Shown here one piece after another: positions 3,309 to 41,690 of a stretch of DNA of 46,439 nt. The stretch's first letter is position 1, and every line of letters starts with the position of its first letter. The position numbers were made by a program, and so were the translations under genes. The notes beneath the pieces were generated by a model. That model was not told the origin of the DNA. It did not search any database and saw nothing but the letters and a program-made list of their open reading frames with translations. Source of the DNA: a virus (Duplodnaviria > Heunggongvirae > Uroviricota > Caudoviricetes); IMG/VR virus record IMGVR_UViG_2579779067_000003; one strand, 5' to 3'.

Positions 3309-3884
3309 CTACGGCAGTGCTGGCCATTCAATATCCTGTGCAGTTGACGTATCAACACGGTTCAGCAATACCCGATACTTTTTCCATGCTTCCAGCAACG
3401 AGATTTCTTCCTCCGTTGCAATTTCCAGATCTGCAGCATCCTGAAGCGGCGCAATATGCTCACTGGCTACCTGCATCAGGTTGTTTTTTGTTTCTTCCGC
3501 CTCCCGGATCCGGAACAGTTTTTCTGCTTCCGTATCCTTCACCCAGGCTGTGCCGTTCCACTTCTGAAACTCCCCTTCCGGCGATAACCAGGTAACATTT
3601 TCCGGTAACGGACCGAGTTCAGAAATAAATAACGCGTCGCCGGAAGCCACGTCATAGACGGTTTTTCCCCGATGATCTTCAACGAGATGCCACGATGCCT
3701 CATCACTGTTGAAAACAGCCACGAAGCCTGCCGGAATATCTGGCGGTGCAATATCGGTACTGTTTGCTGGCAGACCTGTATGAGGCGGAATATATGCGTC
3801 ACCTTCACCAATAAATTCATTAGTTCCGGCCAGCAGATTATAAATTTTTATGGTCTGTGGTTGTTCACTCATTCTGAATGCCAT
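3309..3884 (-). CDS. tfaQ: Tail fiber assembly protein (Tfa)
   Basis: 191 aa [37 protein letters not shown]...; start ATG overlaps stf stop (TAATG). Confidence 0.85.
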
Positions 3885-28078: not shown

Positions 28079-28349
28079 GATGTTACCGTAGTATGTGAGT
28101 ATCCATCGAATAGATACCAAGCAAAAAAGCTCCCGAAGGAGCCTTCATTTTCACTTTTTTAAATCCAACGACAGACGGCTGGCATTTAAGTATTGTGAAA
28201 TATTATCAAATGTAATCATCATTGATTTACAAAAGATACATTTTGCCCCGAAAGGATTCATGTCAGAAACATCAAAAGATGATGTTCTATACTGGGAACC
28301 ATGACAACACGGGCATCTAAAGTGAATATGGTTTGTAATATTGTCTACC

Positions 28350-28562
28350 TCAAAGCGCCACTACATGAACAGCGGCAGGACCTTTAGGTCCGTTCTCAAT
28401 ACCAAATTCAACTTCCTGATTCTCAGTTAATGTTTTGAAATCGTTGCTCTGAATTGCTGAGAAATGGACAAACACATCTTTGCTGCCATCTTTCGGCGTG
28501 ATGAAACCAAAACCTTTTTCAGGGTTAAACCATTTCACTAAACCAGTCATTTTGTTAGACAT
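28350..28562 (-). CDS. cspI: Cold shock protein CspI (CspA family)
   Basis: 70 aa [38 protein letters not shown]... with RNP1/RNP2 cold-shock motifs; long 5-prime untranslated region upstream. Confidence 0.9.
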
Positions 28563-28925
28563 AATTATTACCTTTTGAAGAAATTAGCCCTTGGGCAGAA
28601 TGGTCCGAAAAAAAATATCAGAGAGAAAAACCAACAAGGAAATCTCAAGAGGTACAAATAATAAAATTATAACAATGACTGCTTCAGATAAATTTGTAAC
28701 AAACCAGAACACCATTAACGCATGATTAACCACCCATAGCAAGGATTACTTTTGTAAAGAAAAACACAGCAATGAAAGAATAGCTTTATTTATTAATAAT
28801 AACGTGTCATTCTGATTAAGACCTTTTATCTTACCCTTAAGATTTCAGGAATTTTGGCTCATGGAAGAGTCCTTTTTATTTAAATTTTACATTCCGCGAT
28901 GTAAATGTTCCGATTTAATATTACC

Positions 28926-30671: not shown

Positions 30672-31394
30672 CTAAGAAAATCTTGATAAATATTGGTGCG
30701 GAGGCACACCAAAATATCCTCTAAAAACACTTACAAAATATGATGCATTGTCATACCCGCATATTCCCGCCACCTTGCCGACAGTATGGTTACTGTAGAT
30801 CAATAATCTTTGCGCCATCATCATTCGTTCTTCAAGAATTAATTTACTAAACGATAATCCTTCGTCTTTTAATTTTCTTTTTAACAAACTCTCGCTCATA
30901 TATAATCTTGAAGATATATCACAAAGTCTCCATGACGCTGAGATATCCGAGTGAATAATAGCCTTAACTTTACAACCTAAGCTATTAAGACTTCCGAACA
31001 AAAAACTTTGCACTATTTTCTCTGAAGATAAGACAGCAAGACATGCAAGTGATATTTGATTTCTAACTACATCCACGGTTTTGCTATCACAATTCAAGCA
31101 TGCAACCAAGTTCTTTAACAATGAAAAATCTTCACATTCTACTATCAAGTATGACGGATAAAACCTTCTTACAGAAAAAGGTGAGAGTGTGTAGTTTTTA
31201 AAGAAATCATTAACTGTTTTCTCCTCAACATCTACGATCATTAGATGATCTGTATTTGACGAAAAAAGATCTTTTAAATTGTATTCAATGAGGACAGCAT
31301 TTCCTTTTTTAAACAAAATATCTTCTTTACCAATTCGGACACCAAACGAGTTCAACACCAAAATGATAGAACATATGTATGGCATATTATCCAC
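30672..31394 (-). CDS. AraC/XylS-family transcriptional regulator (AT-rich cargo gene)
   Basis: 240 aa with C-terminal AraC-type HTH region (…MAQRLLIYSNHTVGKVAGICGYDNASYFVSVFRGYFGVPPHQY); AT-rich gene and upstream region. Confidence 0.8.
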   Translation of the reverse strand: MDNMPYICSIILVLNSFGVRIGKEDILFKKGNAVLIEYNLKDLFSSNTDHLMIVDVEEKTVNDFFKNYTLSPFSVRRFYPSYLIVECEDFSLLKNLVACLNCDSKTVDVVRNQISLACLAVLSSEKIVQSFLFGSLNSLGCKVKAIIHSDISASWRLCDISSRLYMSESLLKRKLKDEGLSFSKLILEERMMMAQRLLIYSNHTVGKVAGICGYDNASYFVSVFRGYFGVPPHQYLSRFS

Positions 31395-31791: not shown

Positions 31792-32751
31792 TTAATTCAC
31801 CATCAGTCTTAGAGCCAGTTCTTCCGGATAGGGATCGAAGTAATTCTGTGTAAGCAAGTAATCATTAGGATACTCACCCAGATAATGCTTCAGCAGAGTC
31901 AACGGCGCAAGAAGAGGCAATGTGCCAAAGCGATAGTTAAGTATAACCTCGCTCAACTCTTTACGCTGGCGTGTACTTAAGTAATTACTAAAATACCCCT
32001 GTATATGCATCAGCACATTCGTGTGATTTTTACGTGATGCTGGTTTTCTGAGAATCGCCATCAGATTATCACGATACACCTCAAAGTATGATTCAAGGTC
32101 CGCCCACTCGTGTATTGCAGCCACAAATGGTCCCATATCTTTATAGCCTGCCTGGCTATGCGCCAACAACTGAAGCTTATAACGACTATGAAAAGCTAAT
32201 AACTCTCTTCTTGATAATTTCTCCTTGTAAAGATGATTGAGCTCATGCAAAGCAAAAACTCTTTCAATAAAATTCTCACGAAGCACTGGATCATGTAATC
32301 GCCCATCCTCTTCAACCGGTAGCCAGGAAAACTTTTCCATCAAAGTGCTCGTAAATAGTCCCACTCCATCTTTACGACCTCGATTACCATTTTCATCATA
32401 GACACGCACGCGCTCCATGCCACAGCTGGGAGATTTAGCACAAACCACAAACCCCGATACATCCTTTAATTTGTCCATATAAGAACGACTAAACTCTGTC
32501 ATTCTCTCTGTCACATCCTCATTCTGGTCGTGGCTGAAACACATCCGTATATTTCCTTGCTTCGAGCGCACAAGTCGTAGAGCAGGACGCGGAACTGGCA
32601 GCCCTATAGCCATTTCCGGACATACTGGTCTGAATGTTACCCATTCCACTAATTTGTCCATTAAAAAGTCATCTCTTTTGTGACCACCATCAAAACGAAC
32701 AGCAGAACCGCCCAAACAACCGCTGATCCCAATCACAGGTTTTTTTATCAT
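31792..32751 (-). CDS. DUF523/DUF1722 two-domain protein (TudS/YbgA-like)
   Basis: N-terminal GISGCLGGSAVRFDGGHK motif typical of DUF523, conserved Cys at about 12, 44, 105; C-terminal half YbgA-like. Confidence 0.65.
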   Translation of the reverse strand: MIKKPVIGISGCLGGSAVRFDGGHKRDDFLMDKLVEWVTFRPVCPEMAIGLPVPRPALRLVRSKQGNIRMCFSHDQNEDVTERMTEFSRSYMDKLKDVSGFVVCAKSPSCGMERVRVYDENGNRGRKDGVGLFTSTLMEKFSWLPVEEDGRLHDPVLRENFIERVFALHELNHLYKEKLSRRELLAFHSRYKLQLLAHSQAGYKDMGPFVAAIHEWADLESYFEVYRDNLMAILRKPASRKNHTNVLMHIQGYFSNYLSTRQRKELSEVILNYRFGTLPLLAPLTLLKHYLGEYPNDYLLTQNYFDPYPEELALRLMVN

Positions 32752-32943: not shown

Positions 32944-33468
32944 ATGAAGTTATGGCCTGTGTTGACTGGCATTGCACTCTCTTTCACTCTTATAGCATGT
33001 AAGGCCCCGACACCACCTAAAGGTGTGCAGCCGATTACAAATTTTGACGCCAACCGCTACCTCGGAAAATGGTATGAAATAGCTCGCCTCGAGAACTGGT
33101 TCGAACGTGGTCTGGAACAAGTCAGCGCTACTTATGAAAAACGGAACGACGGAGGGATTCGCGTACTTAACCGTGGATACGATCCAACGAAAAACAAATG
33201 GAGCGAGAGCGAAGGTAAAGCATACTTTACTGGAGATACTAAAACTGCAGCGTTGAAAGTTTCGTTTTTTGGCCCCTTCTATGGTGGCTATAATGTAATC
33301 AAGCTGGATGATGAGTATAAGTATGCTCTTGTCAGTGGTCCGAACAGAGAATACCTATGGATTCTGGCAAGGACCCAAACTATTCCAGATAATGTAAAAG
33401 CAGACTATGTGCGTACCGCTCAAAAGTTGGGATTCAATGTCAATGAACTATTATGGGTTAAACAATAA
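32944..33468 (+). CDS. blc: Bacterial lipocalin Blc-like outer membrane lipoprotein
   Basis: 174 aa; signal peptide with lipobox LIAC; NFDANRYLGKWYEIARLENWFERGLE and SFFGPFYGGYNVI motifs as in E. coli Blc. Confidence 0.85.
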   Translation: MKLWPVLTGIALSFTLIACKAPTPPKGVQPITNFDANRYLGKWYEIARLENWFERGLEQVSATYEKRNDGGIRVLNRGYDPTKNKWSESEGKAYFTGDTKTAALKVSFFGPFYGGYNVIKLDDEYKYALVSGPNREYLWILARTQTIPDNVKADYVRTAQKLGFNVNELLWVKQ

Positions 33469-35894: not shown

Positions 35895-36050
35895 TTACTC
35901 CTCAGGTTCGTAAGCTGTGAAGACAGCGACCTCCGTCTGGCCGGTTCGAATTCGTACCTCGCAAAGGTCTTTCCTCGTTACCAGTGCCGTCACTATGACG
36001 GTTAAACAGATGACGATCAGGGCGATTAACATCGCCTTTTGCTGCTTCAT
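35895..36050 (-). CDS. hokD: Hok-family type I toxin
   Basis: MKQQKAMLIALIVICLTVIVTALVTRKDLCEVRIRTGQTEVAVFTAYEPEE (51 aa); track ORF with 19-codon upstream extension may correspond to the overlapping mok frame. Confidence 0.85.
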   Translation of the reverse strand: MKQQKAMLIALIVICLTVIVTALVTRKDLCEVRIRTGQTEVAVFTAYEPEE

Positions 36051-36280
36051 AGCCTGCTTCTCCTTGCCTTTCGGCACGTAAGAGGCTAACCTACATGTGT
36101 CTAGCATGAAATTGGCCTCAGATTAATGTTAAGCGTCTTGCAGGACGCGTAATGTTAACTGGGGCTTTTCTCTATCTGCCTTTGGTGTTCATGCCTGAGA
36201 CAGATAGCCTCAAGCACCCACGGAAACTTTACTAAAGGAGTTATAGCTTTTCCAGTAGTCTCAACATATTCACATTGCTA

Positions 36281-37837
36281 TTACCTATCAAACAACGGAT
36301 GTATTACAAAATCTCTCTTCATATCAGTAATATCCAAATTAGGTTTATCAAAAGATGAATATATAATTAAAGATGCTGTTTTCCTTATGCCAACCACGCC
36401 TACGACGAACCAGACTTTAAGTAACTCCTCAAAATTCATCAATATTTTTGTATGTTGATCATCCTCTTTAACTACAGTCAATCTATCAAGTAAATGCTGC
36501 GATATATCATCTTTTACTGCTTGTCCTATGTTTGAGACTGTAAAATCAGAAAATGAAATCAAGGAAAGCACATCCAAATATTCTTCGATAAACGGATATA
36601 TGCTTTTCCATTCTGTAACCAAAGCTCTCTTTCTGGACGAATAAAATTTCTCTTCGGCAATTAACACAATATTTTCATTCATGTTAACCATACCATCGCA
36701 CTCAGAAAGACATATATTTACGAAATTAATTGCATCTCTAGGCCTAAGCATTGTTCTGTCAAGGATATAATCATCTGCTCCAATACCTTCAACTGTAAAA
36801 TTAAAAATATCCTTCATTAATACAGACTTATTTGATTGATATCTATTTTTAACCAAATGGTTAATTCTAGCATCAATAATCTCTCTTATTTCCGTTTTAT
36901 TCCATGATATGGAATATATTAAAGATTGATCTTTCTCATCCTGCCTTAAACTACTTTTATAAATTCCCATTAAAATATCTGTTCTTATTGATATCAGAAC
37001 CTTAACCGACTTTATATCTAATAATTCTCGAAAGGCCTCAAGAAGAGCATTAATAAAGTCATATCTGATGGCGCTCGTGCTTAACCAAGATTTATCTAAA
37101 TCATCGATACTGATTACTATTCTAACCTGGTTTGAGTCAGCGAACTCCTCTTTAAGTATTTTAATAAGTTCTTTTTGTTTAAAAAGAAGTTCACGACTCA
37201 CATAACTTGAAGTTTCTGATTGTATTTTGGCTGTATCAGAATTAGATATTTTACCACCCACACCAACAGCGGAATTTCCGAGTTTGAATGACAAATCACT
37301 TTCAAGCTTGTTACTTATTTCAATGAGCGCTTTATCATTGAAGAAATTTTCTTTAAATTGTTCAATATAATCATTCGCAACTTCTGGTTTATACGGTTTC
37401 TTCTTACCACCAATAAGATCTTTAATTTCCTCAAAAAAGCTTTGATAGGAAGAACGATAAACGGCTGGTATAACTTTCATAAGTAATACATGCAGCCATA
37501 ACGATTTATAAAACCCACGTAAATCTATCCCTTTCGAGATCAAATCAGATATAAACACATTGTTATTAATATGTTCAAATATCGTATTTTCTGCCTCTAT
37601 TGTGTCATGCAGCTTAATATTTCCTTTGTCTAATATTTTTTTAAGCAACGCAGACTTACCGCTTCCTGTTCTTCCAACAATAATTCTTCTTGTAAAATCA
37701 GGATTCTTCTCAGTAGAGTCAAAATTCACAATACCTTTAAAAACATTGGACTCATAAAAACAAGCATCAAGATAAGAATCAGTTTCCGCCTCTAATTTTC
37801 CAATCTCATCATTATTTCTGAATTTATAGGCATTCAT
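36281..37837 (-). CDS. AT-rich P-loop NTPase, KAP/PifA-like by motif (candidate phage-exclusion protein); function unproven
   Basis: 518 aa; Walker A GRTGSGKS at about residue 55, Walker B-like IVISIDDLDK about 180 residues later, RPRDAINF arginine-finger/sensor-like motif; sampled 60-nt lines are roughly 25-30 percent G+C versus about 45-50 percent in tail genes (hand counts). Confidence 0.6.
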   Translation of the reverse strand: MNAYKFRNNDEIGKLEAETDSYLDACFYESNVFKGIVNFDSTEKNPDFTRRIIVGRTGSGKSALLKKILDKGNIKLHDTIEAENTIFEHINNNVFISDLISKGIDLRGFYKSLWLHVLLMKVIPAVYRSSYQSFFEEIKDLIGGKKKPYKPEVANDYIEQFKENFFNDKALIEISNKLESDLSFKLGNSAVGVGGKISNSDTAKIQSETSSYVSRELLFKQKELIKILKEEFADSNQVRIVISIDDLDKSWLSTSAIRYDFINALLEAFRELLDIKSVKVLISIRTDILMGIYKSSLRQDEKDQSLIYSISWNKTEIREIIDARINHLVKNRYQSNKSVLMKDIFNFTVEGIGADDYILDRTMLRPRDAINFVNICLSECDGMVNMNENIVLIAEEKFYSSRKRALVTEWKSIYPFIEEYLDVLSLISFSDFTVSNIGQAVKDDISQHLLDRLTVVKEDDQHTKILMNFEELLKVWFVVGVVGIRKTASLIIYSSFDKPNLDITDMKRDFVIHPLFDR

Positions 37838-38086
37838 TGAACAAAAGCTCCATGCTATCTGTAGTTTGGTTTTTAATTATAAAAACATTTTATTAACAAT
37901 TCCACTAAATTGAAACATAATGACAACATGAAACAAAACGTTAGAGGTCAGTTGGCATCAATTGCTCTACCTAAGCTCTGTTACCGACTCCCCGACTACT
38001 CCCCAAAATTTTTTGTCTCTGGTATCCGTTGCTGTTCCGGCGACATTCCTGCGCCGCAGCCTGTTTCGACGCTGTTGACCTTTCGG

Positions 38087-38299
38087 TTACCGCTTTTGCA
38101 ATGCAGATTTTTCCTGCCAGTTCGGTACCAGCCGATATTTTTTCCCCTCCCGCACAAGCTGCCCGTACCGCTGTATGTTCTGGAGCAGGTTTTGAATTTT
38201 CTTGTTGGTCACACCAAGAGCATCAGCCAGCTCCCGGAACGTGGCTTCCCCGTTCTCCAGCAAATGCTGGATTGCGGCCTGTTGATTACTGCTGTGCAT
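38087..38299 (-). CDS. Small winged-helix-like protein translationally adjacent to the O-like gene
   Basis: 70 aa, ATG 2 nt after O-like stop with AGGGGG upstream; HTH-like segment TFRELADALGVTNKKIQNLL. Confidence 0.45.
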   Translation of the reverse strand: MHSSNQQAAIQHLLENGEATFRELADALGVTNKKIQNLLQNIQRYGQLVREGKKYRLVPNWQEKSALQKR

Positions 38300-38301
38300 A
38301 C

Positions 38302-39267
38302 CTACCCCCTGAATCCCGGTGGAATTTCGCTGTCCGGCTCAGAAATATGATTCACACAACGCTGTACAGGTGAACGCCCCAGGCGAATGACCAGTTCATC
38401 CCATTTTTCGCGGAGCTTTGAAGGGCTCATGATGTTTTTTACCCAGAATGGATCTCGCTGAACCCGACCAAACATTTCGCAAATTTGTTTATGGCTTCTG
38501 CCATCCAGCATCCGCATTGTGCGCACGTCATTAGCCCAGGCAGTCCAGTTAGGCTCTTTTGGTCGCATGATCTCGCCATCATCACTGGCGGCCTGTTCGT
38601 AAAGGCTCACGATTCGTGCCCAGATCCATTGCGCACACGCCAAATCCTCCTGATTCCCCCACTGACGTTTTTTAGCACTGAAAACCACCGCGTCAGGATA
38701 TTGGGTTAAATAATTCTGTTCAGCTGTCTGCGGGTCCGATTGCGAAGCTTCCGGACGAAAAGTGTTTTTATTCTCTGTAGTAATCTCTGTTGTATTCTCT
38801 GTAAGATCATCAGGCCATTTTGACCCGATGACATTGGGTCGTTTTGAACCAATGGAGCGTTTCATTTTGACCTCTTCCATCGTGTCATTTTGACCTGATG
38901 GAGCGGCGCATTTTGAACCGATGGATTCGCTCAATTTGCCATCATCTAAAAGCTCGCTCCCATAGTTAATCGTGTAGAAATTGGTCATATCGCGCTTTGA
39001 TTTATTGAGCTTTTCACAACGCAAAAGCCCCAGCGTTTTCAGACTTGCAAACGCGCGCTTTAACGTTGACTCTGACCAGAATGGGAACTGTTCCAGCCAT
39101 TGTTCCGTTGTGTTGTAAATCCAGCGAACACCATCACATTCCATGCCGGAATTGGTATCTCTCAACCAGTAATGCAACTGCTGCAACACAATGGCTTCAT
39201 TTAAGCCAATCTTCATCGCAAGCTGTGTGTTTATAACCAGTGGGCGTTCAGCAAAAAGAAGGCTCAT
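38302..39267 (-). CDS. Replication initiator (lambda O-like / phage replisome organizer N-terminal domain)
   Basis: About 320 aa with N-terminal winged-helix region (LQQLHYWL...) and internal repeated SIGSK peptide motifs encoded by DNA iterons; ATG at 39265-39267; track start 39321 is a TTG extension. Confidence 0.7.
   Translation of the reverse strand: MSLLFAERPLVINTQLAMKIGLNEAIVLQQLHYWLRDTNSGMECDGVRWIYNTTEQWLEQFPFWSESTLKRAFASLKTLGLLRCEKLNKSKRDMTNFYTINYGSELLDDGKLSESIGSKCAAPSGQNDTMEEVKMKRSIGSKRPNVIGSKWPDDLTENTTEITTENKNTFRPEASQSDPQTAEQNYLTQYPDAVVFSAKKRQWGNQEDLACAQWIWARIVSLYEQAASDDGEIMRPKEPNWTAWANDVRTMRMLDGRSHKQICEMFGRVQRDPFWVKNIMSPSKLREKWDELVIRLGRSPVQRCVNHISEPDSEIPPGFRG
38817..38932. repeat. 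Candidate replication origin: five direct iterons (consensus about ATTTTGAcC-n-GATGGA) at roughly 23-bp spacing inside the O-like gene, flanked by an AT-rich tract
   Basis: Repeat starts hand-mapped at 38817, 38841, 38864, 38887, 38910; adjacent AT-rich segment 38760-38815. Confidence 0.6.
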
Positions 39268-39769
39268 AATTCCATCCAGCTTTTTGTTGGTATTGCTGTC
39301 GATACGCAAGTTTGAAAGCAATTGCTTTTTCTATAAGTTCGTCAGTTTCACGATCCACTACGGCAGGATCAGCAAAAAGCAGTCCGGACTCCACCACATC
39401 GCCATATTCTTTGTTTAACCCGGCGATCATGTACGTGATGCTTTTTCCGTCACTAATTTCACGATACAACCTGAAATCATTAATCCGGATAGCCTCCATA
39501 ATTGCAGGCACTAGCGCCGTGAACTTTTCACGCTTATCCCTGGTGTCGATAGCCTTCCAGCGTTCGAATATCTTCACTCGATTAACGCCAAGCGCTCGCT
39601 GATCAACCGCGCCACCTTCATCTGTGACACGCTGAACATCGATGTTCGGGCGCTCTTTCAAAGCCCAGAATGCTTCAGTGATTAATATCGTCGCCTGCTC
39701 CTGTGTCATTCCTGGTCGACATATCCAAGCATCCAGAGCCTCACGAGCCTGTTCAGGAGTGATTTTCAT
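39248..39769 (-). CDS. Hypothetical early-region protein (cII-position)
   Basis: 173-aa ORF between cro-like gene and O-like gene; no family assigned. Confidence 0.45.
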   Translation of the reverse strand: MKITPEQAREALDAWICRPGMTQEQATILITEAFWALKERPNIDVQRVTDEGGAVDQRALGVNRVKIFERWKAIDTRDKREKFTALVPAIMEAIRINDFRLYREISDGKSITYMIAGLNKEYGDVVESGLLFADPAVVDRETDELIEKAIAFKLAYRQQYQQKAGWNYEPSFC

Positions 39770-41631: not shown

Positions 41632-41690
41632 TTTCTGGTGACGTTTGGCGGTATCAGTTTTACTCCGTGACTGCTCTGCCGCCGTTTTTA
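41632..41690 (+). ncRNA. dicF: DicF small regulatory RNA with 3-prime stem-loop and U-run
   Basis: TTTCTGGTGACGTTTGGCGGTATCAGTTTTACTCCGTGACTGCTCTGCCGCC followed by GTTTTT; matches the 53-nt DicF sequence as I recall it (GGCGG...CCGCC stem). Confidence 0.8.

Follow-up and report, generated by a model that had tools for sequence, protein, structure and literature searches.

In KAP-family NTPases the Walker B motif reportedly has the form hhhhDDLD(R) and lies after a long insert that follows Walker A, as Aravind and co-workers are said to have described in 2004, and transmembrane helices inserted in or near the NTPase domain are frequent, though not universal. PifA of plasmid F, which scores 148.5 bits on the KAP model, was the comparison suggested in a preliminary description, made from sequence alone, of a gene in IMG/VR record IMGVR_UViG_2579779067_000003, a Caudoviricetes stretch of 46,439 nucleotides (nt) that was analysed in full (the window) and is a Qin-like lambdoid prophage adjoining rspB/ynfA. 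The gene (36281..37837, minus strand) encodes a P-loop ATPase of 518 amino acids (aa), for which the best label is Sll1717 family, DS-41-like, ORC/Cdc6- and STAND-like AAA+, and not KAP/PifA.

DS-41 (AAA2, WP_033812887.1) is a single 502-aa anti-phage gene validated in the DefensePredictor study (DeWeirdt, Mahoney, Laub; Science 2026; PMC13092281), in which it protected when expressed alone (Tables S6-S7) and cut plaquing of the BASEL phages Bas63, Bas3, Bas19 and Bas25 by approximately 1.4 to 3.6 logs (Tables S6-S8). Table S10 of the same study lists, under cluster_id WP_001741757.1, the exact protein encoded in the window as a computationally "Predicted novel defense gene", with a mean log-odds of 14.7 (seventh in that table) and with Shango SngB, at 27% coverage, as the nearest known defence protein; another Sll1717 member is predicted in Table S4 (log-odds 15.4). 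The gene is already placed in a RefSeq family and already flagged as defensive in a published supplement. Homology to DS-41, the location of family members in defence hotspots and the published prediction are the basis for reading the gene as probably a single-gene anti-phage determinant that protects the lysogen. What the present analysis shows is that the protein belongs to the family and has conserved catalytic motifs, and that the gene is under purifying selection, is autonomous and mobile, and lies in defence hotspots.

Assignment to the Sll1717 family

The ATPase open reading frame (ORF) begins with ATG and continues through 518 codons without interruption, and since this is a 1557-nt frame free of stops at 31% GC, a chance ORF is excluded. 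The encoded protein is identical to WP_001741757.1 in RefSeq, which is named "P-loop ATPase, Sll1717 family", and the gene coordinates follow from the ORF, the family match and the identical RefSeq locus. NCBIfam NF047389, the model of the Sll1717 family, is matched with 180.5 bits (cutoff 75), residues 12-516 corresponding to model positions 1-450 of 454, a coverage that is nearly full-length. The family comprises 1152 clusters at 50% identity (E < 1e-3), and its best 150 matches are mostly 500-590 aa long and matched end to end. The best PHROG match is a family of unknown function, and a full-text literature search on 'Sll1717' found no paper. A truncated form of 298 aa, 100% identical over 58% of the length, represents 110 E. 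coli sequences, indicating that the gene is often disrupted or split in assemblies.

Relationship to DS-41

The membership of DS-41 in the same family follows from P0270, a protein 99% identical to DS-41, which scores 414 bits on the DS-41 equivalog model and passes NF047389 with 97.6 bits; many DS-41 homologues also carry the Sll1717-family name at NCBI. Both the window protein and DS-41 therefore pass NF047389, and both are encoded by lone genes for proteins of about 500 aa without an effector domain, with the collinear motifs GxxGxGKS, hhhhDxLD(E/K), ISWN and (S/R)PR(E/D). In a profile-profile comparison the two clades match along 167 columns that extend from Walker B through the lid, with a probability of 94.6% and an E value of 6.6e-8, and in pairwise alignment the two proteins share 24% identity over 74 residues.

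The two proteins differ in that they fall into separate clades whose profile match is confined to the stretch from Walker B through the lid, and the match of P0270 to NF047389 ends at residue 406 of 502, so that the C-terminal regions may differ. On NF053860, the DS41_1 anti-phage protein equivalog, the window protein reaches 39.1 bits (E 4.5e-10), far below the cutoff of 370. Judged from these alignments, it is a remote homologue of DS-41 and not an equivalog, and the two proteins represent two clades within one family and are not orthologues.

Relationship to KAP NTPases and PifA

The preliminary description had called the protein KAP/PifA-like, a view that is marginally supported for KAP and not supported for PifA. 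Like PifA and the KAP family, the window protein is a P-loop NTPase in which a long insert separates Walker A from a Walker B of the DDLD type, and its gene, like that of PifA, is a single-gene cargo of mobile elements. Its Walker B, IVISIDDLDK, lies 185 residues after Walker A, and Pfam KAP_NTPase (PF07693) is passed marginally, with 28 bits over residues 58-300 (gathering threshold 20, E 1.6e-6); other, more distant Sll1717 members score 18 bits on this model or do not match it. Unlike KAP proteins that carry a transmembrane insert, the window protein has no transmembrane helix, the highest mean Kyte-Doolittle value over 19 residues being 1.58 at residues 475-493 (which contain R and K), and no hydrophobic segment was found within the insert between Walker A and Walker B. 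Specific homology to PifA was considered and rejected, as the hhalign comparison of the Sll1717 clade with PifA gave a probability of 9.4% over 27 columns around Walker A only, which confines the alignment to the P-loop.

Conserved motifs and predicted fold

Four parts can be distinguished in the protein: a conserved N-terminal segment, an AAA+/STAND nucleotide-binding core, a helical lid and a C-terminal winged helix. All three motifs named in the preliminary description were located. Walker A, GRTGSGKS, occupies residues 55-62 (37652..37675, minus strand) and is separated by a helical insert of about 140 residues from the KAP-style hhhhDDLD(K) Walker B, IVISIDDLDK, at residues 240-249 (37091..37120, minus strand). 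The third motif, RPRDAINF at residues 365-372 (36722..36745, minus strand), marks the start of the lid helix and aligns with SPRELIKL of DS-41; its Pro-Arg is probably the sensor-2 arginine element. Residues 405-518 (36284..36625, minus strand) form a C-terminal domain with a predicted winged-helix fold.

Twelve residues are invariant in an alignment of 106 diverse family members with identities down to about 25%: G58, G60 and K61 in Walker A, D245 and D248 in Walker B, P366 and R367 at the start of the lid, and R285, K302, N374, E409 and W410 elsewhere. This pattern, as a property of the alignment, fits an active ATPase. The ratio of nonsynonymous to synonymous differences per site (pN/pS) was 0.10-0.18 against three homologues of 75-89% identity, this measure being used because synonymous sites were saturated and the synonymous substitution rate (dS) was not estimable; in the three pairs compared, these ratios place the gene under strong purifying selection.

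The predicted fold combines an ORC/Cdc6- and STAND-like AAA+ core with the lid and the C-terminal winged helix. Its structural relatives (scores in brackets) are TnsC (9.5), the archaeal AAA+ protein SSO1545 (9.4) and ORC1 (9.3), followed by RdrA of RADAR (8.8), BrxC of BREX (8.2), and plant NLRs and Avs5 (about 7.8). A sequence search against solved structures gave P-loop matches only, and the Pfam nSTAND1 match of 22 bits is below the threshold of 27.1. The similarity to Cdc6/ORC, at 12-14% identity, does not go beyond the general AAA+ fold. ORC/Cdc6 initiators combine an AAA+ base, a lid and a winged helix with a motif specific to initiators and a function at origins or in helicase loading, and STAND NTPases such as Avs add sensor repeats at the C-terminus and an effector domain to a core of nucleotide-binding domain, helical domain and winged helix. 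RdrA, BrxC and the Avs/NLR proteins share 10-14% sequence identity with the window protein, which unlike them is without sensor repeats, an effector domain or partners such as RdrB and the BREX genes; no effector domain was recognisable in the protein.

A variable cargo slot in Qin-like prophages

As the preliminary description had stated, the ATPase is an AT-rich ORF between hokD and the replication genes. Its GC content is 0.315 (0.264 at third codon positions), compared with 0.486 for the whole window and 0.506 and 0.479 for the left and right flanks, and within the window it is the 1557-bp stretch of lowest GC. On one side lie the hok/sok regulatory RNA region (36045..36219, minus strand; Rfam match to sok) and the hokD coding sequence (35895-36050, placed by offset from the annotated identical RefSeq locus), and on the other side lies an O-like replication gene (38302-39321, minus strand). 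Homology to other Qin-like prophages ends at 36219-36233, the upstream end of sok, and is regained at 38300, where the O-like gene ends; the segment that differs (36234-38299) holds the ATPase and a 70-aa winged helix-turn-helix (wHTH) gene.

About ten loci of Qin-like prophages were sampled, from E. coli, Citrobacter and Salmonella, and revealed a range of other occupants of this slot. In K-12 it holds relBE, with relB-relE confirmed directly upstream of hokD as the preliminary description had stated, and elsewhere it contains PD-T7-1 (521 bits), a 798-aa AAA_13 protein matching PADLOC PDC-S06 (1067 bits), a SMEK-domain protein (SMEK being the domain of the validated DS-27; PMC13092281), a 195-aa hypothetical protein or the epoxyqueuosine reductase QueH, once beside a methyltransferase fragment; in Salmonella it holds IetA-IetS (435 and 895 bits). 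The earlier suggestion that different stress or defence cargos share one slot is thereby extended beyond relBE to PD-T7-1, PDC-S06, SMEK and IetAS. The stretch that separates hok/sok from the replication module, in which O is followed by wHTH/DUF977/DUF1627 with a DnaC-like gene sometimes in between, resembles a cargo hotspot, and a literature search found no paper describing this slot of Qin-like prophages as one. The presence of QueH hints at a prophage-borne queuosine- or deazaguanine-related function.

The 70-aa wHTH gene (38087-38299, minus strand) forms the right edge of the variable segment and is a clipped version of a 109-aa replication-module protein, with which it shares 75% identity over residues 1-69 while lacking about 40 C-terminal residues. 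Full 109-aa homologues occur in Citrobacter, and in both Citrobacter and Salmonella the wHTH protein comes after a DnaC-like loader, without the ATPase. At the DNA level, the 10 E. coli genomes that have the ATPase are also those that have the adjacent wHTH variant. A two-gene system of ATPase and wHTH was rejected, as the wHTH gene occurs without the ATPase in Citrobacter and Salmonella and is absent from the homologue loci examined; because it follows the DnaC-like loader and occurs without the ATPase, it is taken as a replication-region gene truncated by the cargo and not as a partner of the ATPase. In Salmonella the wHTH gene beside IetAS is clipped to 89 aa, and cargo insertion seems to truncate this gene repeatedly.

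The intergenic region upstream of the ATPase (37838..38086, minus strand) is AT-rich and contains a perfect TATAAT (37876-37881) and a GGAG (37848-37851). The claim that the gene has its own AT-rich upstream region is correct as to composition; a promoter scan of the ATPase strand called no full sigma-70 site there. A terminator was not found in the interval that separates the ATPase from the gene upstream of it, so transcription may also enter the ATPase gene by read-through from the early operon. The best promoter-like match of the region (37893-37921, plus strand; TTAACA-17-CATAAT, 10/12) is directed away from the start of the ATPase gene and is antisense to the wHTH gene, on the strand on which a 146-codon ORF starts at 37910, and is probably due to chance.

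The O-like initiator itself (38302-39321, minus strand, with 39248-39769) has no Pfam match and is followed by no DnaC-like loader, a loader-less arrangement common to about 1850 E. coli genomes; related prophages do have a loader.

Genomic settings of the homologues

The genomic context was surveyed at 12 loci of ten homologues, covering prophages, plasmids, islands resembling integrative and conjugative elements (ICEs) and one plain chromosomal site. No neighbouring gene is common to the 12 loci and homologues of 55-89% identity are always lone, in agreement with the earlier view of a single gene without a partner. In a P2-like prophage of Serratia, gpA and the portal gene directly flank a homologue of about 70% identity, which places it at the tin/old defence hotspot that P2 has between gpA and gpQ (Rousset et al. 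2022, PMC9122126); the Qin-like slot likewise swaps cargo that includes validated systems. Homologues are immediate neighbours of prophage integrases in Yersinia, Vibrio and E. coli, and others are found in a Dickeya island with a Fic gene nearby, in a Citrobacter/Klebsiella ICE, on an IncFII plasmid adjoining TacAT and YafO, and on a Yersinia plasmid adjoining parAB. Family members at about 30% identity are present on 91 plasmids, of which 58 are conjugative. Among complete E. coli genomes, 10 of 5426 carry the ATPase at this slot.

The homologous gene has a GC content of 0.30-0.34 in every host examined, compared with 0.40-0.54 for its flanks. Homology extends no further than the start codon, and the DNA upstream of it could not be aligned from one context to another, which rules out a conserved promoter or mobile unit moving with the gene. 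The protein is soluble, and its gene is a self-contained AT-rich cargo in a variable slot.

Other features of the window

The interval that separates the Q antiterminator from the lysis genes, in which Stx phages carry stx, holds a second AT-rich cargo patch. This patch contains genes (30672-31394 and 31792-32751, minus strand; 32944-33468, plus strand) for an AraC-type regulator (GC about 0.31), a YbgA-like protein (2-thiouracil desulfurase plus DUF1722) and the lipocalin Blc, none of which has a PADLOC match. Rfam matches above the gathering score were also obtained for IS009 RNA (3343-3541), the cspA thermoregulator (28323-28708), which precedes the cold-shock gene of the prophage, and the small RNA DicF (41633-41684), all of which are usual in Qin-like prophages.

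Discussion

The central idea of the preliminary description, that the gene is a lone defence cargo occupying the relBE slot, is judged probably right, and the Sll1717 family does include the validated anti-phage DS-41. Such defence could take the form of superinfection exclusion or abortive infection.

Several observations weigh against an anti-phage role. The score of 39 bits on the DS-41 equivalog and the 24% identity over 74 residues leave room for a function that could have diverged, and anti-phage experiments in the Sll1717 family cover the DS-41 clade only. PADLOC v2, one of the resources against which the preliminary description had proposed to check the protein, has no defence model that fits it, the two weak matches (mad8 and mad3) being to the P-loop only and none being to a PifA model; no PADLOC v2 model fits DS-41 either. 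A tblastn search of INPHARED phage records found no match to the ATPase, and a Photobacterium homologue occupies a plain chromosomal site without mobile-element markers. The location is only suggestive, as the slot also carries QueH and hypothetical genes, and how phage would be arrested by a protein without a recognisable effector domain is a guess.

The strongest competing explanation, itself unlikely, is that the ATPase is a competition or maintenance factor of mobile elements, which excludes plasmids, ICEs and prophages or stabilises its carrier and for which phage defence is no more than a by-product, an argument already made for PifA. This explanation would account for the plasmid members counted above, for the occurrence of homologues in accessory regions of plasmids and ICEs near partition, toxin-antitoxin and anti-restriction genes, and for the relBE and hok/sok addiction modules held at the K-12 slot. 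However, DS-41, the sole member tested, stops lytic phages when it is cloned on its own, most of the cargo of the slot and of the P2 hotspot consists of anti-phage systems, and a lone ATPase without an antitoxin-like partner is atypical for an addiction module. A role in DNA repair is suggested by the name 'DNA repair protein' of several NCBI/nr family entries, but no repair family is matched in Pfam or NCBIfam, the current RefSeq name is Sll1717 family, no paper on Sll1717 was retrieved, and the sporadic, mobile and AT-rich distribution is unlike that of a repair gene, which makes this role highly improbable.

The preliminary description had also raised an alternative of its own, namely that the ATPase is the missing replicative-helicase loader of the prophage; a related reading makes it another replication ATPase acting with the O-like initiator. 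This is now very improbable and a loader is rejected, as searches of Pfam and NCBIfam with E values up to 10 gave no match to IstB_IS21, DnaC, Bac_DnaA or lambda P, whereas the true loaders of related modules are DnaC-like proteins of 242-250 aa whose gene follows O and precedes the wHTH gene; the true loader of related prophages reaches 59 bits with the IstB_IS21 model and 303 bits with DnaC. In addition, about 1850 complete E. coli genomes have the same O type and 10 have the ATPase, which is absent from more than 99% of prophages with this initiator; homologues occur next to integrases and on elements with unrelated replication systems, among them plasmids and P2-like phages, which use gpA for replication; and the gene itself is AT-rich and sits in a slot of interchangeable cargo. 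Least probable of all is a role in the mobility machinery of a small transposable unit, as a target-selection ATPase like TnsC or MuB, since no transposase or recombinase is consistently adjacent, neither a conserved transposase nor terminal repeats were seen at the 12 loci, and the flanking DNA is unconserved up to the start codon, with no repeat-bounded unit at the boundaries.

If the ATPase does act as an anti-phage determinant, it is proposed to function as a nucleotide-dependent switch. A phage-derived cue, either a protein or a DNA or replication intermediate, would be recognised via the helical insert or the winged helix, upon which the ATPase would oligomerise, as ORC/Cdc6, TnsC, RdrA and STAND proteins do, and infection would be blocked by occupying or remodelling phage DNA or a host factor, perhaps with DNA contact through the winged helix. 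An enzymatic effector is not invoked because none was recognised in the protein, and both the sensing and the arrest steps are speculative. A more specific and rather doubtful version of this scheme holds that Sll1717 proteins are effector-less immune ATPases resembling a rogue ORC/Cdc6, which would load in an ATP-dependent manner, via the winged helix and the insert, onto phage or plasmid DNA or onto replication or packaging intermediates and so block replication physically. If true, this mode of action would involve no nuclease, NADase or membrane effector and would be distinct from the sensor-plus-effector systems Avs, RADAR and BREX.

The effector-less mechanism and the Qin-type cargo hotspot are of most value for follow-up, and the Qin-type slot could be mined in the same way as the P2 and P4 hotspots. 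Confirmation of the clade represented here would provide an E. coli-native single-gene model for phage arrest by an AAA+ protein with a winged helix and no effector domain, and would extend anti-phage function from the DS-41 clade to the core of a family of about 1150 clusters that is distributed across prophages, plasmids and ICEs.

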